Below are positions 3,022 through 43,521 of a stretch of 64,000 bases of DNA, piece after piece. The stretch is from Azolla caroliniana. Lineage: Eukaryota; Plantae; Polypodiophyta. Both the position numbers and the translations under genes were made by a program. Below the pieces are notes generated by a model. The model searched no databases. It saw only the letters and a program-made list of their open reading frames with translations, and was not told the origin of the DNA. The stretch is from assembly GCA_043228905.1 (NCBI GenBank), contig JBHGNT010000021.1:12710001-12774000 (forward strand), read 5' to 3'. How positions within the stretch are numbered: the first letter of the stretch is position 1; each line of letters begins with the position of its first letter.

Positions 3022-3311
3022 TGATGCGAAAGATATATGTATTATATGAAGGAAGATATACAACAGTAGTTAGAAGGCTTAAGACTGGCGTTGAACCGAT
3101 TTGGTTCGAACTAATGCCTTGCGCCTCCTTTTATAGTGTCTTCAGGAATACTCCTGAAGTTTCTAGAATGTTCCAGAGAAATCTGGAATATACATCAATT
3201 TCCCAATAAAACCTAAATGAAAATAATATCCTTCAAATTACAATTCATAACCTAATGGTAAAGTCTCGACCCGTGTAACAAAAGGTTATGGGTTCGAGTC
3301 TAGTTATGACA
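2849..3311 (-). repeat. 3' LTR (463 bp) of the intact chromovirus
   Basis: Direct repeat of 8159-8621, identical by eye. Adjoins the PPT (minus strand AAAGGGGGGATAG, about 3312-3324). Confidence 0.97.
3248..3302 (+). promoter_or_regulatory. tRNA-like Pol III A-box/B-box module in LTR U3 (second copy at 8558-8612)
   Basis: TAACCTAATGG at 3248, then AGGTTATG, then GGTTCGAGTC at 3291. A-to-B distance 43 nt. Confidence 0.6.
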
Positions 3312-6300
3312 CTATCCCCCCTTTAAAACGACGAGTTCCACGAGTCGTTTTGGATTGAGGACCCGGTTTCTCGGGATATCGTCGATGGAAGTCTTCTAGA
3401 AGAGCACGAGCATTGGTCACATTCTCGATCGGTTCCCAAGTACGCTCGCTGGGACTATATCCTAGCCAATCGACTAGATAGTAGAGCTTGTTGCGAACAA
3501 TCTTGGAATCGAGGATGGCAGCGACCTCATACTCAGGTCCATCTTCGAGCTCGATAGGAGGTGGTGGTTGTATAGTACGTCCTGGGATAGTGCTCTCGTG
3601 ATAGGGTTCGAGGAGAGAACTATGAAACACCGGATGTATCCGAAGTTGCGGAGGTAGCTCGAGACGAAAAGCGACATCATTAATCTTCCCGATAATACGG
3701 AAAGGACCTAATCGCCGATAATCCAACTTCTCACATGGGCGAGTAGTCTTGATGTGTCGTCGTAGCAGCCACACCCGATCTCCAATGTTAAAACTGGATG
3801 GAAGTCGATGACGATCTGCGTAGTCCTTGTGTGATTGTTGAGCTTGCTGGAGTTGAGTAGATAAATCCGCTTGTATCTTGCGTAACCGCTCCAAACGATC
3901 CTCCGCGCAAGGATTTGTGGACACTTCTGGGGTTTCAAGGACACACCACCGGGGATGATATCCCGTATAAGCGTAGAATGGCGTGACTTTAGTCGATGCG
4001 TGGATAGCGTTATTATAGGCAAATTCGGCGAACTGAAGAATATCTGCCCAGTCATTCTGATGATAGTTGAGAAAGCACCGCAGATACTGCTCCAGTGTTT
4101 GATTTGTTCGTTCGGCTTGACCGTCGGTTTGTGGGTGGTAGCCGGAGGAGAGGTTACAAGTGACCTTCAGCATTTTAAAAAGGTGCTTCCAGAATTTTGA
4201 CACAAACTGGGGTCCACGATCGCTGATGATATTATCAGGGAGTCCATGATGCCGACATACTTCCCGCATGACAATTTCGGCGGTGTCTTCACTAGATATT
4301 TCTTTAGTACAGGGTAAGAAATGAGCCATCTTCGTATATCGATCCACCACTGTGAGAATCGCACTGAATCCCTTAGAGACTGGAAGATCTGTAATGAAGT
4401 CAAGAGCAATGGATTGCCATGGCTTGCTTGGAATTGGTAATGGTTCTAATAAACCATATGGATGATGTCTTGGCATTTTCGCTCTGCAGCATGTATCGCA
4501 AGTCCGAACAAAATCTTCGACAAATTGTCGCATACGGGGCCACCAGAATGATCGTTGTACTAAATCTAATGTTTTAGTACTACCAAAATGTCCTGCTGTA
4601 TATGTGTCATGGCAATTTTGTACTACTCGAAGGCGGCAAGAACCATTAGGAACATACAAAAGTTCTTTAAAGAAGAGTAATCCATCACAGTATTTGAATT
4701 GCCGATAATCCGTACCTGGTGATTGTGATTGTGAACATGACGCTCGAGAGGGGTCAATTTGTGCTAGTATAGCTTGGGCGAAAGCGTCAGTCTTCAAGTC
4801 CTCACGTATAGTATTGGTAATGTCGGAATCCACGGGCATGTCAAAGACCTGTGCTGCTTGCAGTCGTGCTGGACCCAAGATTACTTGCTTCTGGTTATCG
4901 AAAGCTGGCTCACCGGGACGTGGTGTTAGATACGAACGCCGTGATAATGCATCTGCCTTCCCTTGGTGCTTCCCCGGACGATATGTAATTTTGAAGTCGA
5001 AGCGTGTGAGGAAGTGGGCCCACCGAGCTTGACGTCGATTCAGTACACGAGCATCTTGAAAGTAGGCAAGGTTCTTGTGGTCACTGAATACAGTGACCTG
5101 ATGAGGAGATCCCTCCAGGAAATGCCTCCATTGCATAAAAGAATCAACTATTGCTAATAGCTCTTTATCATGAATTTCGTAGTTGATTTCGGCGGCGTCA
5201 AACTTACGGGAGTGGAAAGCCACAGGATGTAGCTTCTCGTCGTTACCCTGTTGTGACAGAATGCTCCCCAATGCGAAATCCGATGCGTCAGCTTCGATAA
5301 TGAATGGTTTTTCCGGATCCACATGACCTAAAATTGGAGCTGATGTAAACGCCTTCTTAAGACTCTCGAAAGCCATGTCCGTCTCTTTAGACCAAATGAA
5401 TGATTGTCCCTTCCTGGTGAGCTGTGTGAGAGGCAGCACAATTTTTGAGTAATTTTGTATGAACTTTCGGTAAAAATTTGCAAAGCCTAGGAAGCATTGC
5501 ACATCCCGCACCGAATGCGGAGTGTGCCATTCTATCACCGTTTTGACCTTGGCTGGGTCCATAGATATGCCTTCTGAGGAGATGACATAGCCGAGAAATT
5601 CCACTTGGTTGCACCCGAAACTACATTTCTCCAACTTTGCATACAGACCATGTTCTCGAAGTCGTTTTAGTACTAATAGTACATGAGAATCATGTTCTTC
5701 TTGGGTCTTTGAATAAACCAGTAGATCATCCAAATAGATGATCAAAAAATCATCCAAGAGATCTCGAAATATATCATTCGCCATGTGCTGGAAGACTGCC
5801 GGCGCATTAGTGAGTCCGAACGGCATGACCGTATACTCGAAGTGCCCATATCTGGTGCGAAACGCGGTCTTCCATTCATCTCCTGGTCGGATCCGTACGA
5901 GGTTATAGGCTCCTCGTAAGTCGATCTTCGTGAAGAACCTGGCACCGTTGATCCGTTCTAAAAGACTTGAGATAAGGGGAAGAGCATACCTATTTCTTAC
6001 TGTGACCTTATTCAAGCCACGGTAATCTACAACGAGTCGAAGCGAGCCATCTTTTTTCTTGACGAAGAAAATGGGTGCGCCGGCTGGAGATTTCGAATGC
6101 CGAATGAAACCGTTCTCCAAATTCTCCTCTATATAGGCTCGAAGGACTTCTAGCTCGGTTGGTGACAAATTGTAGATCGGCCCCCATGGCGGCTCTTTTC
6201 CCGGTTGTAAGTCGATGGCGCAATCGTACGGCCGATGATGAGGAAGTGTGTTGGCTTGTACTTTATCGAACACATCAGCATACTGACGATACTTCTCGGG

Positions 6301-6900
6301 AAGTTGAACGGTGGACTCCTCTTTGGTGGTGTTGGAGGGTTGTACTGATATTGCGAAGAGAAACATTTCCTCCTTGCGCCCTTCCTCACGCAACTGACGT
6401 AGCGAAATGGTTGCAACCTTCTGGGTAGATCCTTGGGTTTGTCGCAACCGGATTTCCCTTGTCCTCCAATCTATGTCTGGGTTATGTAACTCGAACCATG
6501 GTAATCCTAAAACTATGGGATGTTCTGGAATACTAATAATATTAAATGATACTACACATGTTAAGTTATCTAGGACAATATTAACGGGTTCCGACTCTTC
6601 TATGATATTACCAGAAGCAATGGGACGACCATCAATGACTACTACTGAGGCTGGACATGGGAGCTTTCTGAGAGATATCTGATGAGCTCGGGCAAAATTC
6701 CTATCCATGAAGCAAGAATTAGCTCCGGAATCTAGAAGGGCTAAGGTATGTACTGGAGGGGTACTTTTAGTACTAACTGCTACTTGGGCTACGAACACAT
6801 CACTAACTTGCTTAGAGGGAATGGAACCACTAATGGGCTGCACAGATCTAGGGCTGTCCAACCAAACGGCTCCTATTTTGGCTGGACTTAGTCGTTTAAC
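3304..6900 (-). CDS. pol: Pol polyprotein: PR-RT-RNaseH-INT-chromodomain, in the -1 frame relative to gag
   Basis: LLDSGA (PR), YLDD (RT), ADASD...DALSR (RH), H-H-C-C plus DDE and GPF (INT), EYEVAAILDS...YLVDWLGY...TWEP (chromodomain). No internal stops. Confidence 0.97.
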   Translation of the reverse strand, partial: VKRLSPAKIGAVWLDSPRSVQPISGSIPSKQVSDVFVAQVAVSTKSTPPVHTLALLDSGANSCFMDRNFARAHQISLRKLPCPASVVVIDGRPIASGNIIEESEPVNIVLDNLTCVVSFNIISIPEHPIVLGLPWFELHNPDIDWRTREIRLRQTQGSTQKVATISLRQLREEGRKEEMFLFAISVQPSNTTKEESTVQLPEKYRQYADVFDKVQANTLPHHRPYDCAIDLQPGKEPPWGPIYNLSPTELEVLRAYIEENLENGFIRHSKSPAGAPIFFVKKKDGSLRLVVDYRGLNKVTVRNRYALPLISSLLERINGARFFTKIDLRGAYNLVRIRPGDEWKTAFRTRYGHFEYTVMPFGLTNAPAVFQHMANDIFRDLLDDFLIIYLDDLLVYSKTQEEHDSHVLLVLKRLREHGLYAKLEKCSFGCNQVEFLGYVISSEGISMDPAKVKTVIEWHTPHSVRDVQCFLGFANFYRKFIQNYSKIVLPLTQLTRKGQSFIWSKETDMAFESLKKAFTSAPILGHVDPEKPFIIEADASDFALGSILSQQGNDEKLHPVAFHSRKFDAAEINYEIHDKELLAIVDSFMQWRHFLEGSPHQVTVFSDHKNLAYFQDARVLNRRQARWAHFLTRFDFKITYRPGKHQGKADALSRRSYLTPRPGEPAFDNQKQVILGPARLQAAQVFDMPVDSDITNTIREDLKTDAFAQAILAQIDPSRASCSQSQSPGTDYRQFKYCDGLLFFKELLYVPNGSCRLRVVQNCHDTYTAGHFGSTKTLDLVQRSFWWPRMRQFVEDFVRTCDTCCRAKMPRHHPYGLLEPLPIPSKPWQSIALDFITDLPVSKGFSAILTVVDRYTKMAHFLPCTKEISSEDTAEIVMREVCRHHGLPDNIISDRGPQFVSKFWKHLFKMLKVTCNLSSGYHPQTDGQAERTNQTLEQYLRCFLNYHQNDWADILQFAEFAYNNAIHASTKVTPFYAYTGYHPRWCVLETPEVSTNPCAEDRLERLRKIQADLSTQLQQAQQSHKDYADRHRLPSSFNIGDRVWLLRRHIKTTRPCEKLDYRRLGPFRIIGKINDVAFRLELPPQLRIHPVFHSSLLEPYHESTIPGRTIQPPPPIELEDGPEYEVAAILDSKIVRNKLYYLVDWLGYSPSERTWEPIENVTNARALLEDFHRRYPEKPGPQSKTTRGTRRFKGGIVS
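6856..6900 (-). promoter_or_regulatory. Putative -1 ribosomal frameshift signal
   Basis: Minus strand G-UUA-AAC (6900-6894), 6-nt spacer, then an 11-bp hairpin GUCCAGCCAAA / UUUGGUUGGAC. Confidence 0.65.
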
Positions 6901-8057
6901 TCTTCTTCTAATTGGCTAAGGACATCAAATTTGTTTGCGAGATTCAGACTATTAGTACTATTAGGACTATTATGACTATGAGGACTATCAGAGATTCCTA
7001 CTGAAATAGACTCGGGTTTAGTATAGTCAGAACTAACAACGACTTGGTTTACCTGCCTTCTTGGTCTATGGGGACAGTTTATCGCGATATGCCCTGGTCC
7101 ACCGCAATAAAGGCATAATCGGTTTGTTCGGCGTCGTTGCTTTTCCTCCTCCGATAGCGGCCCACGACGACGTGTAGTGTCAATTTCCATTGGAGTTGGA
7201 GTACTTACTGGAGGCGCATTATGTGACTCCCTTTGAAAAGGTTTTGCTACCACTGAGGCATAGGTAGGCTCGGATCTTGCCCTCGGCATCTGAAATTGTC
7301 GTTCCGAACGTCGCTCGAAGAGGCGGTTGTCACATCTGACCGCTCGACTGATTGCTTCTGTTAATGATTTTGGCTCTTCAGGGAAAGTCAAGAGTAAATC
7401 CTTGACATCGTTGCGTAGACCATAGCGGAACTGCTCCATCAATGCTTGATCATCCCAGGGGATATCGGCGGCGAGTAGGCGGAAATCTGCAGCATATGCG
7501 GAGGCTGGACGGTCACCTTGGCGTAATCGCCGGATTTTGTTGATTGCAGTCCTTATGCTGTCAGTATCTCCAAAACATGCTTTAAACTCACTTATGAATT
7601 CTTCAAAATTATTTAGTACTGGAGATTCCTTTTCTAGTAGCGGAGCGAACCATGCTAATGCTGAGCCATTTAACAACGTGCCTACTAAACCCACTCGTGA
7701 TGCATCGGTGGGATATCGGGACGGATGCATTTGAATAACTAACCGTACCTGGTTAAGAAACCCTCTAAACTGCGATCGCGTTCCATCGAACTTCGTGGGA
7801 AGGCCAATCTTGGGTTCTTTATGAATCCCTTGTGCTCCGTGCCCTTGTTGTTGCATTGCTACGATGGTTGCTTCGAGTTGTTGCACGCGTAACGCAAGTT
7901 CCCCATGCTGTTGTTGCGTTTGCTGCTTTTCTAAGGAAATTTGCTGAAGATCCCCCAACAAGCGTTGATTTTCTTGTTCCAAAGCATGAAACTTCTCTTT
8001 CAAGCATTGAAATTCCGAGAAAACGGATTGATACTCTTCAGCGCTAACGGTGGCCAT
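6888..8057 (-). CDS. gag: Gag (389 aa) with coiled coil, capsid domain and CCHC zinc knuckle
   Basis: PTKFDG, LVGTLLNGSALAWF, LRQG, PTPMEID and CLYCGGPGHIAINC motifs. Confidence 0.95.
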   Translation of the reverse strand: MATVSAEEYQSVFSEFQCLKEKFHALEQENQRLLGDLQQISLEKQQTQQQHGELALRVQQLEATIVAMQQQGHGAQGIHKEPKIGLPTKFDGTRSQFRGFLNQVRLVIQMHPSRYPTDASRVGLVGTLLNGSALAWFAPLLEKESPVLNNFEEFISEFKACFGDTDSIRTAINKIRRLRQGDRPASAYAADFRLLAADIPWDDQALMEQFRYGLRNDVKDLLLTFPEEPKSLTEAISRAVRCDNRLFERRSERQFQMPRARSEPTYASVVAKPFQRESHNAPPVSTPTPMEIDTTRRRGPLSEEEKQRRRTNRLCLYCGGPGHIAINCPHRPRRQVNQVVVSSDYTKPESISVGISDSPHSHNSPNSTNSLNLANKFDVLSQLEEELND

Positions 8058-8144: not shown

Positions 8145-8156
8145 AAATCGGTTCAA
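8145..8156 (-). promoter_or_regulatory. Self-priming-type PBS (not a tRNA complement)
   Basis: Minus strand TTGAACCGATTT, 2 nt after the LTR, is the exact complement of LTR positions 8412-8401, which lie about 33 nt downstream of TATAAAA (8445-8439). Confidence 0.8.
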
Positions 8157-8158
8157 AC

Positions 8159-8295
8159 TGTCAGGAACTCTATTAAGGCAGAGAAGGAATTAGTACTAAA
8201 AGAAGGATTAGTACTATTGTTGGAGAATAGTACTAAGACAGAGAAGGATTAGTACTATGAGAGGTGTCGAACTTTGAGAGAAGGAATGAGTGAGT

Positions 8296-8331
<36 letters not shown>

Positions 8332-8621
8332 TGATGCGAAAGATATATGTATTATATGAAGGAAGATATACAACAGTAGTTAGAAGGCTTAAGACTGGCG
8401 TTGAACCGATTTGGTTCGAACTAATGCCTTGCGCCTCCTTTTATAGTGTCTTCAGGAATACTCCTGAAGTTTCTAGAATGTTCCAGAGAAATCTGGAATA
8501 TACATCAATTTCCCAATAAAACCTAAATGAAAATAATATCCTTCAAATTACAATTCATAACCTAATGGTAAAGTCTCGACCCGTGTAACAAAAGGTTATG
8601 GGTTCGAGTCTAGTTATGACA
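8159..8621 (-). repeat. 5' LTR (463 bp) of the intact chromovirus
   Basis: Direct repeat of 2849-3311. Contains a TATA box, an (AG)n tract and four TAGTACTA palindromes. Confidence 0.97.
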
Positions 8622-8626
8622 GTGGC

Positions 8627-12848: not shown

Positions 12849-13885
12849 TGTCGTGGCGTGGCTCGCCCAGAAGCATAGCGTTGTGTAGACAAAAGTTAAC
12901 GTGAAAGTGAGGAAGGAATCACTGGGATTATGGACAGAAGAGAGGAAAGAGTAGACTCGATGAAGTGAATAGAGATTGACAACATATGGTAAGGTAAGAT
13001 TTTTAAGAAATATGAGATATTGCAAGATAAGATATAAAATGATATTTGAGAAAATGTAGGAAATTTATAATCATTATCATGAAGAGTTACAAAATGGCTA
13101 CGAGCATCGTTGGACCTTCGATTTTCATCTCACAAAGTAACCACTCTTCTCTTCCTTGATAGTAGACCATAATCTTCCCTTCAAGAATCTTTCGACAAGG
13201 ATAAGACTCAAACCACCGCCCTTCCGTTTCAAGTTGAGGACCACAACCGCCATGCTAGTTCTCCTCTAGTTTTTGATGATCCCTCTCTCTCCCTCTTTGT
13301 CTGTTATGATCTATTATAATTCTCTCTTGATCCAATATAATTTGATTCAATCTTATTTCTTGGTATCTTTGTGACTACATCCCCTTCTCTTTTTATAGCA
13401 AAGGGATAGTCTTGCATGTGGTCCATGTGGTGCACATGCAGATAGGCTCTTGCATGTGTGCTATATGGTGCACATGTAATACATTACAATGTTTACACTA
13501 TTTAATGCAAGTTCAAATAGACATGTTATGAGTATTGGCTAAGTGGTAGTGATTGATGCTTTCAAAGTTGAGGTTGTGGGTTTGAGTCCTCTCTAGTGAA
13601 TGTAATGCAATTCTTTTTCTTTCTATAGCCGCTGTATATAATGTACTATATTATAAAATATATATAGTTTATATATCATGAATGTTGGCTAATTGCTAAC
13701 ATGTGAGGCTCATAAGGCGGAGGTTGTTAGTTCAAGTCCTCTCTTGTCCTCATAATATAGTGTTTTACTTTATTCACCTATAATGTATAATATTATATAA
13801 AACACTATCAAGATTTTTTTAATATTTTAGTTATGTATTTATCTTATTGTAGACTTTTGATGTGAAGCTTTCATACTTCACGACG
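12849..13885 (-). mobile_element. Solo LTR (1037 bp) with TGTCG...CACGAC termini
   Basis: Interrupts copia A RT at KQAP|RQ. Flanks CCGG and CCGA (4-bp TSD, one mismatch). Minus-strand TATAAAAAG near 13390. Confidence 0.8.
13535..13739 (+). promoter_or_regulatory. Two tandem tRNA-like A/B-box modules, 150-bp period
   Basis: TTGGCTAAGTGG(13535)...GGTTTGAGTCC(13579) and TTGGCTAATTGC(13685)...AGTTCAAGTCC(13729). Each is followed by a T4-T5 run. Confidence 0.6.
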
Positions 13886-20280: not shown

Positions 20281-20341
20281 CGGATGGCACCGGTCAAGGA
20301 GCCGGAGAAGAAGAAAGTGTCATAGACACAATGGAATGTAG

Positions 20342-20395
20342 GATGTTGAACCCATGACCCCCTGGTCTTATTGGGCAACCTTACCAATTGAGCTA
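20342..20395 (-). promoter_or_regulatory. tRNA-like A/B-box module in LTR U3 (second copy at about 25136-25189)
   Basis: Minus strand TAGCTCAATTGGTAAG...GGGTCATG-GGTTCAACATC. A-to-B distance 43 nt. Confidence 0.6.
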
Positions 20396-20681
20396 CATCT
20401 GTCTATGCATTATTGTATTGTATAAGTTTCAACTTATTACATTCTATGTTAATCACTAGAAATTTCAAGAAACTTCTAGAGAATGCATCTTCATGCACTC
20501 TTTAGAAGTTTTCATGCACTCTCTAGATATTACCTAGCTTGCATGCATACCACCACATTCTTCTATAAATACTTCAGTGCACCTTGATTACAATCAAGGT
20601 GAACAACACCAGTTACGGAAGCATAATTTAGTTCTTTCTCTTTTGTCTACCTTCTCTCTCTCTCTTGTTCTCTTGTCTATG

Positions 20682-25573: not shown

Positions 25574-28500
25574 TGTTGGGAATAGACGCTTCTATTCACC
25601 TTCTTATCTCGGCCACAACCGATTAATCGCGGATCAATGGAGCAGAAAATAGGAAACACACGTAGAAACAAAACGAAGAAACGCGAGTACACAGAGATTA
25701 ACGTGGAAAACCCTATACGGGAAAAACCACGGGAGTGCGAGACTCCAAACCAAAATATGCACAGAGAAATATACAATGGCGAGCTGCAAGGCAACGACCT
25801 TGAGCTCGCTTTCTTCACCACAGGCGGCGGTATTACACAGAGGCGTCGACCTCTTCCTCTCTCACGCTCGCTCTATCTCTCTCTCTCTCACGGCTGCTTA
25901 CACTTCACTCCTCTAGAGTGGAAAAACAGAAAAATGAGAAGCAACAGTAAAACTGTTTGCCCTAAGTCATATTTATACTTATATGACTTTGGGCTATTTA
26001 CAACTGTGGCCTCAGGGGCCCATAGCGAACATATTCACGGATATGTCCCTGCATCCGGATCGCTCTCCGGGTACATTTGTCATCCGGTACCGAAACCGGG
26101 GTCTTCGTCATCCGGATCCGAAACCGAAACCGGGCTTGTCGGCATCCATCTCAGATATCCGACCATCCCATCCGAAAGGGACCGAAATCCCAACAAACTC
26201 CCCCTTCACTTCGGCATGGGATGTCTCTCCAATCCGATCCTCTTCCGGCATGCTTCCAGCTTGTCGGGTGTGAGCACCTTGGTCAGCATATCCGACCCGT
26301 TCTCGTCCGTGTGGATCTTCGTCAGCACGAACTCCTTGTCTTCTATCCTTTCCCGGATCCAGTGATATCTTCGCTGGATGTGCTTCGTCCGGGAGTGATA
26401 GGCCGCGTTCTTCGCAAGGTGGATTGCACTCTGACTGTCGCAGTAGAGTCGGTACTCCTCCTGCCGGATACCGAGCTCTCTAATGAAGTCCTTCATCCAA
26501 ATTATTTCCTTGCCGGCTTCAACAGCTGCCATGTACTCCGCCTCCGTGGTTGACAACGCAACCGTTTTCTGCAGCCTCGACTGCCACGAAACAGCTCCCC
26601 CTGCAAACGTCATCACATACCCTGATGTGGACCGGCTGGTATCTGCATCAGCCGACATATCCGAATCGGTGAAGCCGTCGAGTTCGGGCTTACCGGAGCC
26701 GAATCGGAGGCACACGTTTGCCGTGCCCTTCAGGTATCGGAGTATCCACTTGGCCGCGTTCCAATGCTCTTTGCCGGGATTGCTCATGTACCGGCTCACC
26801 ACTCCGACTGCATATCCGATGTCCGGTCTCGTACACACCATGGCGTACATCAAGCTCCCGACAGCTGAGGCATACGGCACTTTCACCATATCCTCCTTTT
26901 CAGCCTTTGTCTTGGGACTTTGCTTGCTGGACAACTTGCAGTTTGCCGGTAGGGTTGATCCGACCGGTCTTGCTTCCGACATGTTGAACCGTTGAAGCAC
27001 CTTTGTCACGTACTTCTCTTGTGACAGCCACAACTGCTTCTTGCTCCGGTCCCGGATGATGTGCATCCCTAGTATTTGCCTCGCCGGACCCAGGTCCTTC
27101 ATTGAGAAGGTTCGGTGAAGAGCCTTCTTCAGCATCCGTATCTTGACCTGGTCCCGTCCGACGATCAACATGTCGTCCACGTACAGGAGGAGTATTAGGG
27201 AGTCTCCTCCTTCGAACTTCTTCACAAACACGCAGTGGTCGGACTGCGTTTTGAGGTACCCTTCGTCGGTCATGAAGGAGTCGAACTTCCGGTACCATTG
27301 CCGGGGAGCCTGCTTCAGTCCGTAAAGGCTCTTCTTCAACCGGCATACCAGGTGCTCCTTCCCTTTCTTCTCGAATCCTTCCGGTTGCTGCATGTAGATC
27401 TCTTCTTCGAGGTCACCGTGAAGGAATGCCGTCTTCACGTCCATCTGTTCTACCTCGAGGTCCATGCTTGCCGCTATGCTCAGCACCGTCCGGATGGAGG
27501 TCATCTTCACTACCGGGGCAAATATCTCGTCGAAGTCGACGCCCTTCTTCTGCTGAAACCCCTTCACCACGATCCTGGCTTTGTATCTCGGGGGGTTTCC
27601 GGCATCTCCCGGTTTCAGCTTGAACACCCACTTGTTTCGCAGTGCCCGCTTTCCTTTCGGCAACTCCACAAGTTCATATGTGTGGTTCTCATGCAGGGAA
27701 TCCATCTCGTCCTGCATGGCACTCAACCACCTGCGGCTCTGGGTGTCATGCTTTGCTTCTTCAAAGCTCTCCGGCTCCCCCTCGTCGGTTAGCAACACGT
27801 GCTCTGGTTCCGGAAATCTCCGGGGGGCCCTTCTCTCTCTTAGAGGGTATCTCCGTTCCGGAGCTTCGGTAACCGGTTCTTCCGATTCTTCTTCTTCATC
27901 CGAATCCATTTCGGGATCGGGGCCGGTTCCGGTATCATTTTCATCTTCTTCGGCCGGTTCTGTTTCTTCACCGTCTTCGGCCGGATCCTCGAGTGTTAAC
28001 CGGTCCCTTGCCGGTCGGGACTGCTCCTCGTAGAGTTGATCCTCACCGATCGACTTGGAGCTCTTCATCTTCTTCTCCGACTCCCAGTCGGCGAGTGTCT
28101 TGTCCTCCATGAAGATGATGTCTCGACTCCTGAATATCTTCTTGTCGACCGGGTCCCATACTCGGTAGCCGAACTCGTCGTCGCCGTAACCGAGGAATAT
28201 GCATGGCCGGGTCTTAGGATCTAGCTTTCCTCTCCGGTCCTTTGCCACATGCACGTATGCGAGACACCCGAACACCTTCAGATGCCGGTAGGACACTTCC
28301 TTACCGGTCCACACTCTCTGCGGCGTGTCTCCGTCCAAAGGAACTGAGGGTGATCTGTTTATCACATATGTCGCCGTCGACATTGCCTCAGCCCAAAACC
28401 CCTTGGGTAATTTCGCATGCGCCAGCATACTCCGGACCCGCTCCATTATGGTCCGGTTCATCCTCTCGGCCAGCCCGTTCAGTTCCGGCGTCTTCGGCAC

Positions 28501-30933
28501 AGTAAACTCGAGCCGGATTCCCTTCGAGCGACAGTACTCCTGGAACTGCCCTCGGTATTCCCCTCCGTTATCCGCTCGTATGGCTTTCAGCTTCTTGCCG
28601 GATTCCCTTTCCACTCTCGCGTGGAGTTCTTTGAAGACGGACAACACTTGGTCCTTTGTCTTCATCGGTGCCGTCCACAGTCTTCGGCTATGATCATCTA
28701 TGAATGTTACGAAGTACTGGGCTCCGCCATGTGACTTCGTTTCTACCTGACACACGTCGGTGTGCACCAACTCCAATGGTGCGCTACGTCTCGTCGGTGG
28801 CCTTGAGTGGAAGGAGGTTCGGTTCTGCTTACCGGCCAGGCAATCGGTGCACTTCTCCAGGTGCACGTGCTTCACTGGAATAAGGTTGTCTTCTGCAAGC
28901 CTCTTCATCCCCTTCTCACTCATGTGGCACAATCTCTTGTGCCACAGCTCACCGGCAGTGTCGGCTGCCACATTCAGCTCTTCCGGACATAACCGGGCAT
29001 TCATCAGGTACAGTGTGTTGACCTTCCGGGCCCGAGCCACTATCAAGCTCCCCTTGCTGAACTTCATGACACCGTTCCGGATGCTACCCGTGTAGCCTTC
29101 ATCATCTAGCCTCCCGGCCGAAATCAGGTTCAGTCGGACCTCCGGAACGTGTCGGACATTCTTCAGCAGCATTTTGCATCCGGTCGGGGTTGTCAACCAC
29201 ACGTCCCCTATGCCGGCAATCCGGCACGTACCTTCGTTTCCCATCCGAACACAGCCATGCTCACCGGCTGTGTAGGATGAGAAGTATTTCTTCTCCGGGG
29301 TCAGGTGGAACGACGCTCCGGAATCGACCACCCAGGTCATCTCTACGCCGGCAAGGTTCAGCTCCCTCTCTTCGGTAATGAGCATGATTTCTTCTTCACT
29401 TGCCGCGAGTGCCGTCGTTCCTTTCCGGTCCTGCCCTCGCCGATCCGAACCTCTCCGGTCCGTGGCTCCCCGATATGCACCGTTTCTCTCCGGTGACTTC
29501 TTCGAATCGGTGTCGTCGGCTCCGTTGTCCTTTCGGTAATGCCGACAATTCTTCCGGAAGTGCCCCGGCTTCCCACAGTGGAAGCACGTGGGCCTTCCTC
29601 TTGACTGCGACCGGGTCCCCGACTTCTCCCGTCTTTGCGGACTCCGGTTCCAGTGTCTTCCCCGTTCCGATTCGGTAAGCAGCATCTTCGGGTCGGAGGT
29701 CGGTTCCTTATCTCTCCGACGCGCTTCTTCATTCAAAATACTTGTCTTTACCGTTTGTAAGGACAAGTTATCTTCGGTGCAGGAGGTGCTGAGAGTCACC
29801 ACCAAGTTCTCCCAGCTTTCTGGCAATGTACACATCAGGATGATGGCTTGCATTGCATCCTCCAACGGGAACTTAATCGCCGCAAGCTGGTTCACGAATC
29901 CCATGAACGTGCTTACGTGTTCAACCATACTCTCGCCGTCTCGATACTTGAGGTTCACTATCTTCCTCATCAGGGAGGTCCGGTTCAACGCATTCTTCCT
30001 CTCGTAGAGGCCCGACAGCTTCTTCCACATCTCATATGCGTTGGTGTCGTTCGCCACATGTTGTAGGACGCTTACATCGACATATTGTCGGATCGTTGCT
30101 ACGGCTTTCCGGTTCAGGAGCTTCCACTCCGACTCAAGTACCCCCTTCGGTATTTCCGACCTGTCAATCGGTTCGTACAGGTCCCGAACAATCAGAAGAT
30201 CCTCCATCTTGATCTTCCAGTCGGCGTAATTCTGTGCATTCAGCACCATCATCATCGGCTGCCCGCTGCCGCCGCCTTCCATTTTCTGCAACAGTCGCTC
30301 TGATACCAGATTGTTGGGAATAGACGCTTCTATTCACCTTCTTATCTCGGCCACAACCGATTAATCGCGGATCAATGGAGCAGAAAATAGGAAACACACG
30401 TAGAAACAAAACGAAGAAACGCGAGTACACAGAGATTAACGTGGAAAACCCTATACGGGAAAAACCACGGGAGTGCGAGACTCCAAACCAAAATATGCAC
30501 AGAGAAATATACAATGGCGAGCTGCAAGGCAACGACCTTGAGCTCGCTTTCTTCACCACAGGCGGCGGTATTACACAGAGGCGTCGACCTCTTCCTCTCT
30601 CACGCTCGCTCTATCTCTCTCTCTCTCACGGCTGCTTACACTTCACTCCTCTAGAGTGGAAAAACAGAAAAATGAGAAGCAACAGTAAAACTGTTTGCCC
30701 TAAGTCATATTTATACTTATATGACTTTGGGCTATTTACAACTGTGGCCTCAGGGGCCCATAGCGAACATATTCACGGATATGTCCCTGCATCCGGATCG
30801 CTCTCCGGGTACATTTGTCATCCGGTACCGAAACCGGGGTCTTCGTCATCCGGATCCGAAACCGAAACCGGGCTTGTCGGCATCCATCTCAGATATCCGA
30901 CCATCCCATCCGAAAGGGACCGAAATCCCAACA
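25574..30933 (-). mobile_element. Intact Ty1/copia element 'F' (Tnt1/Tork-like), 5360 bp
   Basis: Two 622-bp LTRs (25574-26195 and 30312-30933) identical by eye, TSD GAACC, PBS TGGTATCAGAGC (30308-30297, tRNA-iMet), PPT at about 26198-26209. Confidence 0.97.
26206..30282 (-). CDS. gag-pol: Gag-Pol polyprotein (about 1358 aa): Gag-ZnK-PR-INT-RT-RNaseH
   Basis: CFHCGKPGHFRKNC, VVDSGAS, LWHKRLCH...CTDC, ADNGGEY, QMDVKTAFLHG, YVDD, GFTDSD, HSRTKHI in one open frame. First ATG at 30282. Confidence 0.97.
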   Translation of the reverse strand: MEGGGSGQPMMMVLNAQNYADWKIKMEDLLIVRDLYEPIDRSEIPKGVLESEWKLLNRKAVATIRQYVDVSVLQHVANDTNAYEMWKKLSGLYERKNALNRTSLMRKIVNLKYRDGESMVEHVSTFMGFVNQLAAIKFPLEDAMQAIILMCTLPESWENLVVTLSTSCTEDNLSLQTVKTSILNEEARRRDKEPTSDPKMLLTESERGRHWNRSPQRREKSGTRSQSRGRPTCFHCGKPGHFRKNCRHYRKDNGADDTDSKKSPERNGAYRGATDRRGSDRRGQDRKGTTALAASEEEIMLITEERELNLAGVEMTWVVDSGASFHLTPEKKYFSSYTAGEHGCVRMGNEGTCRIAGIGDVWLTTPTGCKMLLKNVRHVPEVRLNLISAGRLDDEGYTGSIRNGVMKFSKGSLIVARARKVNTLYLMNARLCPEELNVAADTAGELWHKRLCHMSEKGMKRLAEDNLIPVKHVHLEKCTDCLAGKQNRTSFHSRPPTRRSAPLELVHTDVCQVETKSHGGAQYFVTFIDDHSRRLWTAPMKTKDQVLSVFKELHARVERESGKKLKAIRADNGGEYRGQFQEYCRSKGIRLEFTVPKTPELNGLAERMNRTIMERVRSMLAHAKLPKGFWAEAMSTATYVINRSPSVPLDGDTPQRVWTGKEVSYRHLKVFGCLAYVHVAKDRRGKLDPKTRPCIFLGYGDDEFGYRVWDPVDKKIFRSRDIIFMEDKTLADWESEKKMKSSKSIGEDQLYEEQSRPARDRLTLEDPAEDGEETEPAEEDENDTGTGPDPEMDSDEEEESEEPVTEAPERRYPLRERRAPRRFPEPEHVLLTDEGEPESFEEAKHDTQSRRWLSAMQDEMDSLHENHTYELVELPKGKRALRNKWVFKLKPGDAGNPPRYKARIVVKGFQQKKGVDFDEIFAPVVKMTSIRTVLSIAASMDLEVEQMDVKTAFLHGDLEEEIYMQQPEGFEKKGKEHLVCRLKKSLYGLKQAPRQWYRKFDSFMTDEGYLKTQSDHCVFVKKFEGGDSLILLLYVDDMLIVGRDQVKIRMLKKALHRTFSMKDLGPARQILGMHIIRDRSKKQLWLSQEKYVTKVLQRFNMSEARPVGSTLPANCKLSSKQSPKTKAEKEDMVKVPYASAVGSLMYAMVCTRPDIGYAVGVVSRYMSNPGKEHWNAAKWILRYLKGTANVCLRFGSGKPELDGFTDSDMSADADTSRSTSGYVMTFAGGAVSWQSRLQKTVALSTTEAEYMAAVEAGKEIIWMKDFIRELGIRQEEYRLYCDSQSAIHLAKNAAYHSRTKHIQRRYHWIRERIEDKEFVLTKIHTDENGSDMLTKVLTPDKLEACRKRIGLERHPMPK

Positions 30934-33192: not shown

Positions 33193-36100
33193 TTGCCATA
33201 TCATGACACTATCTCTCCCTTAAGGCGACAAGTGGAACAAGTCAGCGCTGATTGCGGACCGGGTTTGTCCGGATACTTTCGATGGAACTCAGCAAGAAGA
33301 TCTTGAGCATTGGCGACATGCTCGACGGGTTCCCAAGTATGTTCACTCGGACTATAGCCGAGCCAATCGACCAAATAATAAAGTTTGTTGTGAACAAATT
33401 TGGAGTTGAGGATGGCAACAACTTCATACTCCAGGCCGGCGTTGGTGTAACACGATCGGGAAGAGTGTTTGCCTTATAAGGTTCAAGAAGAGAACTATGG
33501 AAGACCGGATGTATCCGAAGATGCGGAGGAAGATCAAGGTAGAACGTACATCATTAACCTTACCGGTAATACGGAAAGGACCGAGTCGACGATAATCCAA
33601 CTTGTCGCACGGTCGAGTAGTCTTGATGTGACGACGTAAAAGCCATACTCGATTTCTGATGGAAAAAGAGGAGGGAAGTCGATGACAATCCGCGTAAGTC
33701 TTCTGCGTCTGTTGACCATGACGAAGATGAGTAGTCTCTCCAAATGATCCCCGGCATGAGGATTGGTAGGTAGCTTCGGGGTGTCGATCACCAACCAGAG
33801 AGGATGAGAACCGGTATAAGTGTAGAATGGGGAGACTCGAGTTGAGGAGTGAACAAGATTATTATACGCAAACTCCGCAAAGTGGAGAATCTCGGCCCAA
33901 TCGTCCTGTTGATAACTCAGGAAACACTCGAGATATTGCTCTAGCGTTTGGTTTGTTCGTTCTGCCCATCGGTCTGAGGATGGTAGCCGGAGGAGAGGTT
34001 GCAAGAGACCTTGAGCATCTTGAAGAGATGCTGCCAAAATTTGGAGACGAATTGAGGTCCTCGATCACGAATGATACTGTCTGAGAGGCCATGATGCCGA
34101 AATACTTCACGCATGACAAGTGCGACGGTTTCCTCACTAGTGATGGCCTTAGTACACGGCACGAAATGTGTCATCTTCATATATCAATCGAAGATGGTTA
34201 AGATAACATCGAACCCCTTTGAGACCAGCAGATCTGTGATAAAATCAAGACAAATAGACTGCCATGGCTTACTTGGAATCGGTAAGGGTTCCAACAAGCC
34301 ATATGGATGGTGTTGTGGCATCTTTGCTCGGTAGCAAGCATCACATGTCCGAACGTAGTCATCGACAAAACGTCGCATATGGGGTCACGAAAAGGATCGT
34401 TGAACTAGATACAACGTCTTAGTGCTACCGAAATGTCCTGCCATATGGGTGTCGTGACAACTTTGGACGATTTGAAGGCGACAGGAGCAATCGGGGACAT
34501 GTACAAGCTTTTTAAAGAATAACAAACCATCATGATATTCGAATTGTCGGTAGTCCATACCTGGTTGCTGACACTGGGAACAGGATGCCCGAGAGGTATC
34601 AATGTGCGCCAGAATGTCTTGAGCAAAATTGTCCGTCTTCAAATTCGCACGTATGGTGTCGATAATCTGGGAATCCATTGGGGTGTGAAAAATCTCCGTT
34701 GTGTGCAATCATGTTGGTCCCAAGATTACTTGCTTTTGATTATCGAACGCTGGATCACTAGGACGAAGTTGGCAAAACCTAGAAAACATTGCACATCTCG
34801 TACCGACCGTGGAATTTGCCACTCTAGCACAGTTTGGACTTTAGCTGGATCCATGGAGATGCCCTTTGAGGAGATGACGTAGCCTAGAAATTCAACTTGC
34901 TTGCAATCAAAGCTACATTTTTCTAGCTTGGCATAAAGACCATTCTCGCGGAGTCGTTTTAGTACTAATAGTACATGAGAATCGTGCTCTTCCTGGGTCT
35001 TCGAATAAATCAATAGATCATCCAGATAGATGATCAAACAAATATCCAAGAGGTTTCTGAATATATCATTTGCCATGTGTTGGAAGACTGCGGGTGCATT
35101 GGTTAGACCGAACGGCATAACAATATATTCGAAATGCCCATACCGCGTGCGAAAGGCGGTCTTCCATTCATCTCCCGGTCGGATCCGCATGAGGTTATAT
35201 GCTCCTCGTAGATCGATCTTTGTAAAAAACTTGGCACCATTAACTCGCTCTAAAAGACTTGATATAAGAGGAAGTGCATACCTATTACGGATGGTGACCT
35301 TTTTTAAGCCGCGGTAATCAACGACGAGACGAAGTGAGCCATCTTTCTTCTTGACAAAGAAGATGGGTGCACCGGCTGGAGATTTCGAATGACGAATAAA
35401 CCCACTTGCCAAGTTTTCCTCTATGTAGGCTCAAAGGACTTCTAACTCTGTGGAGGACAAGTTGTAAATTGGTCCCCATGGTGGCTCTACTCCCAGTTGT
35501 AGATCAATGGGACAATCTTAGGGACGATGATGAGGAAGAGTACCGGCTTTTACCTTGTCAAATACATCGGCATAAGGATGATATTTCGCCGGAAGATGTA
35601 CTAAGGATTCCTCGTTAATAGTGCTGGAAGGATGTACTGATATTGCAAATAGGAACATTGCCTCCTTGTGTCCTTCTTCGCGTAATTGACGTAGTGAAAT
35701 GGTCGAAACTCGATGAGTAGATTCTTGGGGTTGTCGATGTCGGACTTCTCTTGTTCTCTAATCTATGTCTGGATTATGTAATTCAAACCAAGGTAATCCC
35801 AGGACAATGGGATGCTCTGGACTACTAATTATATTAAATGCTACTACACACACAAAACTACCTAGGACAACTTGAATGGGTTCTGACTCTTCTACAATAT
35901 TCCTGGAAGCAATGGGACGACCATCAATGAATACTACAGATGCAGGGCAAGGAAGTTTTCTTAAGGATATCTGAGAAGCTTGGGCAAAATTTCGATCCAT
36001 GAAACAGGAATTAGCTCCGGAATCTAGAAGTGCTAGGACATGTACTGGGGGAGCACTTTTAGTACTAACCATGACTTGGCCTAGGAACACATTGCTAACT

Positions 36101-37492: not shown

Positions 37493-38460
37493 TGTCGGGG
37501 TAGTTGTGGTTCGTGTGGCGAAGTCGCGGGGACTAAGGTTAAGGGGAGTTGAAGAAACTTAACTTTTAATAAGGCTTGTATGGTGATGTTAGAAAGGTTA
37601 AGAGTAGCAGGAAGAAGAGTTACAAGTAATGTGAGAGAGAGAGAGACGGGAATATATAGAAGATAGAGATAATATATGATTCAAGAAGCAAGATGACAAA
37701 ATATGATTTAAGAAGGAAGATTGAGACAAAAGTATGATTCTAGAAAGAAGATTGAGACAAAGTATGATTCAAGGAACAAGAGTATATGATATAAACATGA
37801 TGTATATTAAAAATATAATATTTTACCAACTTTACAATCCTCGATCGCAAACTGAACACATTCTCTATCGACCCTTGATTTGAACCCACGACCTCAACTT
37901 CAAAACGAGAGGTTCTCCACCCAATGAGCTAGTCTTCTTTAGTTGATTATATTTTTTTCTCACTCTCTCTTGATTCCCTTCTTGTTTTCCTTGCCCCTCT
38001 TTATATAAGTGTTGGCATGCATATGATAATGTATGGGAGCATGGCATGCATGCAATGCATGAGTTACATGTAATGCATGATCGCCATTTGGCGCACATGT
38101 ATTGCACGTGATGCATGGTAGCCATCATGCTCACTTGAGCTCCCATGTATGAAAGTAGATATGGGATAAGTATAATGATGAAAATGTATTCTAAAATAAC
38201 TAACCTACCTTAGTGGTGTATACTTTGTGTTTGGCATACAAGGTTGAGAGTTCAAGTCTCTCAATTTTACTTAATACAATATATAGCTTCATTCTTATAT
38301 CATGAAGCACATTTGTTACCAACTTTTACAAATAAATAGCCTAGCCTAGTGGTATGTACATTGTATTTCGTATATAAGGATGTGGGTTCAAGTCTCTCAA
38401 ATATTATTAAATACAACATTTAAGCTCATTTTTATATCGTGAAGCACATTCTTCACGACA
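37493..38460 (-). mobile_element. Solo LTR (968 bp) with TGTCG...CGACA termini
   Basis: Interrupts the chromovirus LTR at TGCGT|AAGAC. Flanks GCGT and ACGT (4-bp TSD, one mismatch). Minus-strand TATATAAAG near 38000. Confidence 0.85.
38206..38395 (+). promoter_or_regulatory. Two tandem tRNA-like A/B-box modules, 136-bp period
   Basis: TACCTTAGTGG(38206)...AGTTCAAGTCT(38249) and TAGCCTAGTGG(38342)...GGTTCAAGTCT(38385). Both have 43-nt spacing and are followed by T4-T5. Confidence 0.65.
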
Positions 38461-38494
38461 ACGTAAGACTCCCGAGAGAGAGAGAGAGAGAGAG

Positions 38495-38840: not shown

Positions 38841-38898
<58 letters not shown>

Positions 38899-39332
38899 GT
38901 AAAGAGAGATAGCGAGGATGAGAGAAAGAAAGAAAGATATATTAACGTCTTCTAAGGCCAAATTTGGCCCATGAGACAATTGGTTTACAACAAAAGAGTA
39001 TTTATCTAGTCATCATAACTAAAATAAAATTAAGTAAAAAATAGAACTTAAACTAAAAGAGTTCTAGTAGTGTACAATACGTAGTATACTCGAAAGTGAC
39101 TATACACTAAGCCTAATTTTATTTCCACCCAAGCCTCTCGAAAAGAAGTGGGGGGTCAAAGGGTCTTGATGTGGGTGTGACCCGTGGTTCCAATGTAGAG
39201 AGTGCCCTAGCCATGGCTTCTAGGCGATGTAGCTCACGTTCCCTTATTTTCAATATTGCTTCCACATCACGTTGAGTTGCTTTGAAACCCGGCACCCGAG
39301 GACGTCTGGTTCTTCTCTGGTTTTCTGCCTCA

Positions 39333-40975
39333 TCAATGGAAAGGCCGAGTGGTGCAAGTGTGTCTGCATTCATTGTCTTCATTTGTTACATGTTCGTGAT
39401 CATTAGCAACATTATTGTCAACATTTTGTAACTTATTCTCTCTGTGTTGTTTTAGCTCTAGAATGTATTTGCCTAATTTCTTTATATCTAGAGTATCTAA
39501 TAGTTTGGGGAGGGTGGGAGACGAACCAAGTATGTCTTGGTATTTTGCCCTTATCTCGGCATAGGTTGGACACTTGCATGTAAAGTGGTACTCATCCTCT
39601 ATCTTTATGTGACATAACCTACATATCCTTTCCTCCCTAGGGACTCCACTAGTAAGGCCATTCTCAATCTCAAGTTGGTGAGATGATATTCTAAGTTGTC
39701 CAATGGCAACCCTTAGTGCATGTGGTAAGAATACATCTAGATATTTTGGCCGCGTGATAAAACCTAACTCAGAGAAGTGCATGAAGTGTTTCTTATAGTA
39801 CAACATTTTAGATGGGAGTGGCTCTAGTGGGGTGATCCATTTACACCGAGTGTAAATTTGCCATATTTCTTGGCGTATTACTTTATTGCGGTCCTCATGA
39901 GAGATTAAAGTGTTATCACTCATGTGCTTGTACCTAAGGGGAGGTAGGTTATTAATGTCTAGACCATTCGCAAGAAGCCAACACACCATCATGCCATACC
40001 ATGAGCTAGTATAGCCAGACTCATACAATGATCGAGAGGCCTTAAAGGCTTGATGAGATATTCTATCATGTGGTTGGCTATGTATCCTGTGAATGAAGAC
40101 TACAAGTTGAAAAAGTGCCTCTACTAACATTGGGGGTAACGTGAACTCAGCCCTAATAATGTCATGTGGTACAGTCGATTTGCTTCGGAGTTGGCGTGAT
40201 AGCATCATCACCAATGGTCTCTCTAATTGCGTCCACATGAAAGATGGTAATCCTGGAGCCCAAACCGCTGATGCATACATGAGGGAGGGGGTCACTAATG
40301 AGTCAAAGAGCCACCCTTTAGTCCGTGGCTCTTGAAAATGTGCTTGGTGGCATTGTCTCTCTAGGAGTGAGAGGGATGCATGTCCTCTCGTGAGTCTATC
40401 CTTCGCTGCCTGTGTCATTGAAAATTTACCTGAGCGGGCACTAAAAGTGACTCCGAGATAGACGTATGATCCAACCACCTCGACTATGCTATGGGAGATA
40501 GTTAGGTGACACTTAACTCTAACTTGGGCCGATGTGTGGAAGATAAGGACTTTCGTTTTCCCTAGATTCACTACCAATCCTCGTTGTACACAAAAGTCAT
40601 CTAAGGCATTAAGGTGCCTTTGTAGGTCGTGTTCGGATTCAGAGAGCAAAACTATGTCATCCGCATAGAGCAAGATACGAACCTGCGTATCCCCAAGGAC
40701 CACTCCGGTGCCTCCCTCACGAGCAATAAAATCTGTGATCTCATCAATGTAGATCCCAAAAAGCGTCAGTGATAGGGGGCAACCTTGTTTTACACCAATA
40801 GTGCTAGTGAAATGATTAGATAGGCCACCTAGGCATCGGACACACTCGAACACTTGTTCATATAGTGCGTAGATGGCCCATACCATATCATCTAGTATCC
40901 TCAAGCTTTTAAGTCTATCAAACAACCGCTCTCTAGGGACCGTGTCAAAGGCTTTGCAGAAGTCCACAAAACGGG
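39333..40975 (-). pseudogene. Non-LTR reverse transcriptase plus CCHC domain, 5'-deleted ORF2
   Basis: ORF 39333-41057 carries the RT motifs. Its N-terminal approximately 28 residues come from the ORF1 repeat. Confidence 0.85.
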
Positions 40976-40980
40976 CCTGA

Positions 40981-41886
40981 CGCATTTTCTCTTCTTCAAG
41001 GGTGGTATTAACAATATTTTCATATTTTATTTCTTTTTTAATGTTTCTTTTAACCACATCTACCCAACCCGTTTTAGCTAACTCTATGTTATTATTAACT
41101 TCCTCTTAAAATTTTTTAATTTCGTCCTTTATATCCTCTATAGAGGATATTTCACCGTCTTATCGAGATACCTCGATGTCCTTAAGTTGTTTTTTAAGGT
41201 CAGTGCGCATTTTCTCTTCTTCAAGGGTGGTATTAACAATATTTTCATATTTTATTTCTTTTTTAATGTTTCTTTTAACCACATCTACCCAACCCGTTTT
41301 AGCTAACTCTATGTTATTATTAACTTCCTCTTAAACTTTTTTAATTTCGTCCTTTATATCCTCTATAGAGGATATTTCACCGTCTTATCGAGATACCTCG
41401 ATGTCCTTAAGTTGTTTTTTAAGGTCAGTGCGCATTTTCTCTTCTTCAAGGGTGGTATTAACAATATTTTCATATTTTATTTCTTTTTTAATGTTTCTTT
41501 TAACCACATCTACCCAACCCATTTTAGCTAACTCTATGTTATTATTAACTTCCTCTTAAACTTTTTTAATTTCGTCCTTTATATCCTCTATAGAGGATAT
41601 TTCACCGTCTTATCGAGATTATACCTCGATGTCCTTAAGTTGTTTTTTAAGGTCAGTGCGCATTTTCTCTTCTTCAAGGGTGGTATTAACAATATTTTCA
41701 TATTTTATTTCTTTTTTAATGTTTCTTTTAACCACATCTACCCAACCCATTTTAGCTAACTCTATGTTATTATTAACTTCCTCTTAAACTTTTTTAATTT
41801 CGTCCTTTATATCCTCTATAGAGGATATTTCACCGTCTTATCGAGATTATACCTCGATGTCCTTAAGTTGTTTTTTAAGGTCAGTG
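40981..41886 (-). repeat. Four 225/228-bp tandem repeats of LINE ORF1 coiled-coil sequence
   Basis: Units start at 40981, 41206, 41431 and 41659 and are nearly identical. Confidence 0.95.
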
Positions 41887-43521
41887 TTTTCCACTTTAAG
41901 TTGTTCTATTTCGGCCTTGAGGGCGTCTTTTTCCTCTCTATCTTTTTTCTTGTGGGTTTTGGCGTCTTTCACCCATTTTTTCATATCCATCTCTATTTTT
42001 GTTAAACAATTAAACATATCTAAAAAGTCCTCCTTACTTATAGCCTCGTCTTGTATATCCTTATGTTCCTTAGTTCGTTTAGACATCATTGTGGTGTCAA
42101 TAAGAAAAAAAGGTAAAATAAATGGGTTTGAGACTTAGCCGAGTTTATGTGTATGTTGCAATCACATCGGCATTTTGTAGCACGCGATGAGCACACCAAA
42201 AGAACCCACCCACGAACTCGTCAAGAAAATGGCACTTCACAACGTCAAGAGAAAACGGAGAAGAAACACCCTGCGACGGCGACGGCGATGGTGACGGCGG
42301 CAACAGACGGCAGAAGACGGCTGCAGACGGTAGCAGACGGCGACGGCAGCAGACAGCGGTAGTCATCAGACGACGACAACAACAGTCGGTAGCAGACAAT
42401 GGCTGCGGACGACGGCGACGACAATAAACGGCGACAACAACGACAGAAAGAGTCGTTCCACAGAGATGAGGAAGCGAGAGAGAGAGAGCAGACGGCAGAA
42501 GACGGCAGAAGACGACAGAAGACGGCTGCAGACGGTAGCAGACGGTGACGGTAGCAGACGGTGACGGCAGCAGACAACGGTAGTCGTCAGACGACGAGAA
42601 CAACAGTTGGCAGCAAACAGCGGCTGCAGACGACAACGACGGCGACGACGACGACAATAAACAGCGACAGCAACGGCAGAAAGAGCCGTTACACAGAGAC
42701 GAGGAAGAGAGAAAGAGAGAGAGAGAGAGAGATGATGATGATAACAACCAATATATTATGTGAAGGATAAGTACAAAATGGTTAAGAGGCTTAAGGTTGG
42801 GGTTGAACCAATTTGGTTCAACATAATGCCTAGTGCCTTCTTTTATAGTGTTCTCAGGAGTAATCCTAAAGCTTCTAAAATGTTCTAGAGAAATCTAGAA
42901 TATACATTAATTTCCTATAATAAAATTTAAATGAAAATAATATCCTACGTATTACAATAGATGGTATAATGGTCAAGAGCTCAACTCATATAACATAAGG
43001 TCATGGGTTCGAGTCTTGCCATGTCATGAAAACTAGAAGGCTTTACAGATTCAGATATGTTGGCTGATGCAGATACCAATCGATTCATATCCGGATACGT
43101 CGTGACATATGCAGGGGGAGTCGTATCGTGGCAATCAAGGTTGCAGAAGTCCGTTGCACTATCAACAATGGAAGCGGAGTACATGGCAGTTGTGGAAGCC
43201 AACAAGGAAGTAAATCTAAGATGAAAGACTTCATCGAAGAGCTACGGATTCGGCAGGAGTAATATCGACTCTACTATGACAACCACAATGTCATCCACCT
43301 TGCTAAGAACGCATCCTACCATTCTCGGACCAAGCACATCCAGAGAAGATATCACTGGCTCCAGGAGAAGGTAGAAGATCAAGACTTCGCGCTGACAAAG
43401 ATCCACATGGAGGAGAACGGGTCGGATATGCTAACCAAGGTGCTATCAGCCAACAAATTGGACACGTGCCGAAGACGGATCAAACTAATGAGAAATCCCA
43501 TGCCGGAGTGAAGGGGGAGTT

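Follow-up and report, generated by a model that had tools for sequence, protein, structure and literature searches.

Candidate tRNA-gene-type promoter modules in the long terminal repeats of autonomous gypsy retrotransposons of the fern Azolla caroliniana

Long terminal repeat (LTR) retrotransposons nested in one another occupy the window analyzed here, a 64,000-nucleotide stretch of the Azolla caroliniana genome (positions 12710001-12774000 of contig JBHGNT010000021.1, in a 523-Mb assembly). LTRs of several of these elements carry modules made of an A box and a B box, as in tRNA genes, that are predicted sites for TFIIIC, a factor of RNA polymerase III (Pol III). The modules are real, widespread, and non-random; their function we infer. 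The modules of the window are listed first and the elements that carry them second. Module positions follow tRNA numbering, scores are bits against a matrix of this genome's own tRNA genes, and TATA boxes and transcription start sites (TSSs), here and below, are deduced from the sequence.

3248-3300, plus strand: module in the 3' LTR of element A, antisense; 11 nt separate the end of the B box from the LTR tip; 37 bits
8558-8610, plus strand: module in the 5' LTR of A, antisense; A box 111 nt from the TATA box; 37 bits
13205-13257, minus strand: sense module of solo LTR D1, 140 nt downstream of the TATA box; 20 bits, up to 30 in other copies
13536-13588, plus strand: antisense module 1 of D1, TATA-proximal at 137 nt; 36 bits
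13686-13738, plus strand: antisense module 2 of D1; 28 bits
20343-20395, minus strand: antisense module of the B 5' LTR; 29 bits
25137-25189, minus strand: antisense module of the B 3' LTR; 31 bits
33139-33192, plus strand: antisense module of the C 3' LTR; 35 bits
37877-37931, minus strand: sense module of solo LTR D2, 76 nt downstream of the TATA box; 39 bits
38206-38258, plus strand: antisense module 1 of D2, 198 nt from the TATA box; 31 bits
38342-38394, plus strand: antisense module 2 of D2, inside a 136-bp tandem duplication; 36 bits
42962-43015, plus strand: antisense module of the C 5' LTR, in its displaced U3 part; 35 bits

2849-8621, minus strand: element A, an intact Tcn1-like chromovirus of 5,773 bp; target-site duplication (TSD) GTGGC
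2849-3311 and 8159-8621, minus strand: LTRs of A, an identical pair by sequence identity
6888-8084 and 3304-6915, minus strand: gag of A and pol of A with chromodomain, both intact
8437-8446, minus strand: TATA box of the A 5' LTR, predicted from sequence
8147-8158, minus strand: self-priming primer-binding site (PBS) of A, complementing LTR positions 8401-8412 just past the TATA box
12849-13885, minus strand: D1, a Phygy-like solo LTR inside a copia reverse transcriptase (RT); 4-bp TSD CCGG/CCGA
20318-20681, plus strand: 5' LTR of a family B chromovirus, broken off at about 20681; predicted TATA box at about 20564-20571
25112 onward, plus strand: B 3' LTR, split by a young copia at 25574-30933
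37493-38460, minus strand: D2, a Phygy-like solo LTR nested in the C 5' LTR; TSD GCGT/ACGT; predicted TATA box at about 38000-38007

The original prediction placed ten A/B modules in the U3 regions of eight LTRs, all antisense to the element. All ten are present at those places, with a one-base shift in two whose T8 falls at 13536 and 13686, and their antisense U3 position holds, the orientation of the solo LTRs having been checked on a full-length D2 relative. The A-to-B spacing is indeed 43-44 nt in every one. A generic A/B regular expression gives 11 matches in the window versus a mean of 1.06 and a maximum of 5 in 200 dinucleotide shuffles of it; the 11 comprise eight of the ten modules, two additional ones, and a probable chance match at 7692. 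Scored with an A/B matrix trained on this genome's tRNA genes only (n=89), the ten reach 27.7-36.9 bits, within the range of the training genes (6-45 bits; medians by isotype 27-44, degenerate Gln copies excepted). Module scores and counts thus lie far above those of shuffled and reversed controls. The boxes were also said to enclose no good cloverleaf, and ARAGORN finds 0 genes and Rfam no tRNA match; with stem tests negative as well, we reject the idea that the modules are tRNA genes or structured RNAs. Two parts of the prediction fall. Specifically, modules are not always antisense and in U3, because each solo LTR has a third module, in sense orientation, 76-140 nt downstream of the TATA box. 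Further, the solo LTRs, described as having different termini, are both Phygy-like, with similar ends and 4-bp NCGN-type TSDs. The copia LTRs at 49041-49313 and 54966-55248 have an antisense B-box-like 9-mer at their extreme tip, with a proper A box missing (8 bits); at 8 bits only, the tip of the first was rejected as a module.

By their sequence features, the carriers are two distant gypsy lineages, Tcn1-like chromoviruses and Phygy-like elements. These labels rest on features rather than on a tree against reference sequences, and the chromovirus clades come from a quick tree only. Element A possesses a chromodomain at the end of pol (PF00385, E 2e-14) and a self-priming PBS, a combination shared with Tcn1, whose chromoviruses self-prime (PMC6317226; papers are cited here from parts of their text). 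Named protein matches are fungal, vertebrate, algal, and plant, at 42-64%. The genome holds 2012 first-look candidates for A, and 40/40 scored matches are 100% identical over 301 nt; by these sequences A is a very young and very abundant family. Chromovirus C is related to A (LTRs 76-80% identical), and B belongs to a separate chromovirus clade. The C 3' LTR has its tip at 33208, next to which, on the element strand, lies the polypurine tract (PPT); the C 5' LTR is interrupted, and 42695-43029 is its displaced U3 part. The solo LTRs come from non-chromoviruses with a tRNA-Trp PBS and an RT 25-26% identical to that of A. Their orientation is set by the full-length relatives L341 and L342. L341, the D2 relative, is 7.5 kb long with a tRNA-Trp PBS, gag-pol remnants, and a PPT in a Phygy-type layout, i.e., a short element with neither an extra open reading frame nor a chromodomain. 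Similarly, Phygy is a short non-chromovirus with an NCGN target preference (PMC6317226), and the 4-bp TSDs of D1 and D2 have a CG core with one mismatch each. Both kinds of element are abundant in this fern; the available portion of PMC6317226 reports Tcn1 and Phygy from moss and clubmoss only and mentions no Pol III boxes.

Other residents of these sequences deserve description. The copia at 25574-30933, inside the B 3' LTR, is intact and young, with identical 622-bp LTRs, a 1375-aa frame, and no module. At 39333-41886, nested in the C 5' LTR, an RT frame lacking LTR-element domains lies beside a 225-228 bp tandem repeat and is probably a long interspersed nuclear element. The element at L191:6300-9500 has a 2.4-kb period, a Trp PBS, a gag-like start, and no pol; its LTR family has 2785 first-look candidates and carries the module.

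The modules extend well beyond the window. About 2 Mb of genome DNA was read in total, by sampling, of which 120 evenly spaced 10-kb loci (1.2 Mb) form the genome sample, scored at a cut-off of 20 bits with reversed DNA as the control. At this cut-off the sample gives 72 matches and the control 1. Assigned to classes by hand from clusters, with some copies placed by family membership, the 72 are 45 antisense modules in U3, 3 sense modules downstream of a TATA box, 9 copies in a free repeat, and 15 tRNA genes. LTR modules are therefore antisense in 45/48 cases, and extrapolation gives about 20,000 U3 modules in the genome. Chromodomain ends and copia ends served as anchors chosen independently of the boxes. 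A module lies within 125 nt of 11/15 chromodomain ends (8/12 outside the window); of the four ends without one, three form a separate clade and the fourth holds a 16-bit module. Among 58 copia ends there is no copia LTR module: 55 have no match, and the 3 matches belong to nested gypsy LTRs. Modules occur in 5/20 elements with a Trp PBS, and among the LTRs of such elements those with a module are CpG-poor (6 have one and 17 lack one; p=0.001, the families not being independent). In metagenome relatives with at least 56% integrase (INT) identity, 2/3 loci have an LTR-tip module; 77 more distant metagenome loci, 14 with less than 300 nt of flank, have none near the INT end, and their distant matches are at 865 and 1184 nt.

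The geometry of the modules follows a rule. Between module and LTR tip there are about 10 to about 500 nt. From the predicted TATA box, the A box of antisense modules is about 110-290 nt away on the upstream side, and sense modules are found 70-140 nt away on the downstream side. Thus, all LTR modules examined face away from the TATA box, which is a better rule than "always antisense." Because TFIIIC recruits TFIIIB upstream (PMC3159450), this polarity has the predicted TFIIIB side facing the core promoter. Duplicated modules occur in D1, D2, and L098. In the chromovirus family of L098 (8744-8787 and 5060-5107), spacer and B box are tandemly doubled behind a single A box. A block rich in CATG/TGCATG between module and TATA box (window 13400-13500 and 38010-38150; L342) recurs across families, and no other part of Phygy-like U3s is as conserved; we take it to resemble RY motifs.

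This arrangement bears on two readings. In yeasts, tRNA-gene (tDNA) barriers and extra-TFIIIC sites likewise use A/B or extended B boxes to affect adjacent chromatin and RNA polymerase II (Pol II) (PMC2040200, PMC4228148, PMC3159450). However, those are host loci rather than mobile ones, and one Schizosaccharomyces pombe tDNA barrier is orientation-independent (PMC2040200), unlike the modules with their fixed polarity. A pure chromatin barrier therefore does not account for this orientation, and shielding survives as part of the reading we prefer below. Alternatively, a TFIIIC/Pol III complex could dampen the element, by roadblock or by tRNA-gene-mediated repression, so that expression is confined to periods of Pol III inactivity and the host detects the element less. 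Sense modules do stand in the Pol II path, and in yeast TFIIIC depletion de-represses adjacent Pol II transcription (PMC4228148). The youngest and very abundant family, A, nevertheless has a top-scoring module, and self-repression requires a more special selective argument; we judge this reading improbable.

What has been kept in the modules, and what has been lost, resembles DNA recognition. In a test unconditioned on spacing (116 loci, four tRNA-gene loci having been dropped), B-core matches with a strong A box have it at 43-44 nt in 38/61 cases versus 0/21 in reversed DNA. Between chromovirus and Phygy-like modules, in a set picked by the matrix and hence biased, identity is 0.65 in the A box, 0.78 in the B box, and 0.57 at positions 44-51, versus 0.29 in the spacer and 0.28-0.37 in the flanks. 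The kept AGGT at 44-47 is like the GTC by which intragenic B boxes are extended in Dictyostelium (PMC3159450). T-stem pairs are kept in 19/87 cases versus 19.1 in permutations, and acceptor pairing (64/203) is not kept. Terminators have no fixed position: the distance to the first T4 run downstream differs with family and flank, from 1 to more than 1,300 nt. With tRNA stems and terminators lost, the constraint looks like one on DNA recognition, not on RNA.

These losses also disfavor the suggestion of an antisense small RNA, i.e., that an RNA transcribed by Pol III across U3 tip and PPT acts as a regulator of the element or of reverse transcription. tRNA-type Pol III genes have AT-rich or CAA sequence upstream and a T-run downstream (PMC7544208). 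The modules have both boxes intact and AT-rich DNA upstream, and in some chromovirus modules, these only, CAA precedes the A box by 5-9 nt. Nonetheless, RNA structure and terminator position vary as described, chromovirus modules have no terminator within the LTR, and sense modules exist, of which the D2 copy reaches T5 after 63 nt. We give a functional RNA little credence.

How did the modules arise? They are common to family copies and to both LTRs of an element, so copy-specific short interspersed nuclear element (SINE) insertions do not account for them; ordinary SINE insertion is rejected on this family-wide inheritance and on the lack of a tail after the 69-79 nt that B shares with a free repeat. 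That repeat measures about 200 bp, bears two tRNA-like heads in convergent orientation, and sits without exception in TC microsatellites (first-look candidates: 2144; L117:1590-1790, L261-L290, L082, L086, and L092); neither TG..CA ends nor a tail were seen in it, and it is possibly a TC-targeted dimeric SINE. One of its heads is 91% identical to the B module at 20343-20395 over 69 nt, and the match hardly exceeds a tRNA-sized unit. The head keeps 5/7 acceptor pairs and the B module 3/7, making transfer from the free element to the LTR the likelier direction. In other families, no match to the free element extends beyond the boxes. In the quick tree, three members of the B clade (SH-aLRT 96) have three different modules in the same place, and L344, sister of B and its two closest relatives, has none; there is apparent module turnover, or replacement with retention. 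We infer that modules were captured from SINE-like heads two to four times. Module spacers weakly match Thr, Lys, Arg, Trp, or Gln tRNA (nine isotypes compared, the Met row out of register). Derivation of chromovirus modules from the element's own primer tRNA is rejected because chromoviruses self-prime. The genome's tRNA genes themselves form tandem arrays of one isotype each (Lys, Arg, Ile, Thr, Trp, His, and Met) with many degenerate copies (L031-L039, L048-L050, L118, L128, L180, and L195).

Such an origin could have left neutral relics: heads derived from tRNA inserted a few times into ancestral LTRs and have been carried along since, and only copies facing away from the TATA box were tolerated, the opposite orientation driving Pol III through the promoter. 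A free tRNA-derived donor exists, with at least about 2,000 candidates; within-family conservation is weak; one D1 module has a family-wide C56>T; and many successful families have no module. On the other hand, boxes and spacing last while spacer, stems, and flanks decay to background, gains in the same place recur in lineages at 25% RT identity, the B clade apparently replaced its module, and copia LTRs have none. On balance, we regard neutral relics as rather unlikely. A further notion, that modules are landing pads attracting Pol III-targeting retrotransposons, draws on the frequent interruption of these LTRs by nested insertions. Yet the nested insertions of the window are in R/U5, 280-900 nt away, and LTR matches end 20-80 nt upstream of an A box in just 3/200 cases, in sets biased to intact LTRs; we consider this notion very improbable.

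The reading we prefer, with a little less than even confidence, is that the modules are predicted TFIIIC sites that open or shield the Pol II promoter of the LTR; the portable TFIIIC/Pol III site originally proposed is, as a predicted site, the best account of the LTR modules. tRNA-type A/B cassettes were likely taken into fern gypsy LTRs from tRNA-derived repeats. TFIIIC would bind unmethylated copies of the module and place TFIIIB on the side facing the LTR TATA box. Together these factors would keep a nucleosome-poor gap and block both read-in from the flank and silencing, and the outward orientation would keep the TATA box and TSS out of the path of any Pol III. In keeping with such roles, tRNA genes occupy nucleosome-depleted regions (PMC11346459), and yeast TFIIIC sites halt read-through and influence adjacent Pol II starts (PMC4228148).

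Several observations weigh against this proposal. TFIIIC is excluded by CpG methylation (PMC11346459), and module copies show CpG-type decay. In yeast, TFIIIC loss de-represses neighbours (PMC4228148), so the effect on the LTR could be negative, and the predicted site in the 3' LTR stands in the Pol II path. The geometry depends on TATA and TSS positions read from sequence. Boxes outlast spacers between families, but excess conservation within families is weak or absent: D1 (p=0.013) and D2 (p=0.034) show weak excess, and B (0.42), E (0.56), and A/C (0.34) are not significant. Between D1 subgroups the boxes are at 0.70 versus 0.66 for background, and other U3 windows are at or above 0.88. These tests have low power because most copy differences postdate insertion, yet strong constraint finds no support in them. 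In nearly every close copy, the D1 module at 13536 has C56>T, which would be expected to impair the B box severely. Modules are also dispensable, as 15/20 Trp-PBS elements, all copia, and the sister lineage L344 do without them. Poly(A) reads of a diverged relative, unsuited to Pol III RNAs and uninformative for either side, number 78-127 on element A, on both strands, and 2-8 on the D2 LTR, with no start-site pile-up.

The arrangement, for which the original prediction knew of no description, has a close precedent. Helenus/TRIMp3, the nearest system, consists of TRIMs (miniature terminal-repeat retrotransposons) with tRNA-like sequence in both LTRs (PMC10886601). As here, conservation is confined to the A and B boxes, and there is no functional tRNA; multiple origins by SINE insertion into the LTR have been proposed, and one plant family comes from Selaginella (PMC10886601). 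Helenus elements, however, are non-autonomous, 311-1263 bp long, and non-coding, and their boxes are proposed to drive their own RNA (PMC10886601), whereas the carriers here are gag-pol elements of 5.8-7.5 kb with a TATA box and modules mostly antisense in U3, which cannot make the genomic RNA of the element. Cassandra and Ajax TRIMs also have a Pol III internal promoter in both LTRs, and differ in having 5S-type boxes, being non-autonomous, and transcribing the element in sense (PMC10886601). The same source holds that autonomous partners must depend on Pol II promoters and that "not a few" Repbase LTRs contain tRNA-like parts, which it leaves undescribed. In a library that lacks most subscription journals, we found no paper on antisense A/B modules in the U3 of autonomous elements, although Repbase and the supplements of PMC10886601 may hold such LTRs. 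Thus, tRNA-like LTRs were known from Helenus TRIMs; autonomous gag-pol carriers and outward-pointing modules appear to be new here.

Apart from these elements, the plastid matK at L423:991-2244, whose best named relatives are from ferns at 49-53%, is interrupted in frame by a TGA, as U-to-C editing would allow, and adjoins an ndhB-like frame.

If the sites bind TFIIIC, the host Pol III machinery becomes a cis-regulatory part of the element rather than a target or an RNA promoter, a use by autonomous LTR elements unforeseen in the text of the Helenus paper available to us (PMC10886601). Tens of thousands of extra sites could titrate TFIIIC, and extra A/B sites could inflate tRNA and SINE annotation in ferns. 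The available portion of a barrier review (PMC9540200) contains no plant equivalent of tDNA barriers; the LTRs described here, with young identical copies, sister families with and without the module, and B-box mutants differing by a single base, offer a natural test of plant tDNA/TFIIIC barriers. Our broadest suggestion, offered tentatively and from sequence, is that autonomous gypsy elements of a fern may repeatedly have made tRNA-gene promoters a regular component of the LTR, bracketing and opening the Pol II promoter, and so seeding at least about 20,000 predicted TFIIIC sites in heterochromatin. This would be a transposon anti-silencing device and the first tDNA-type boundary activity of plants.

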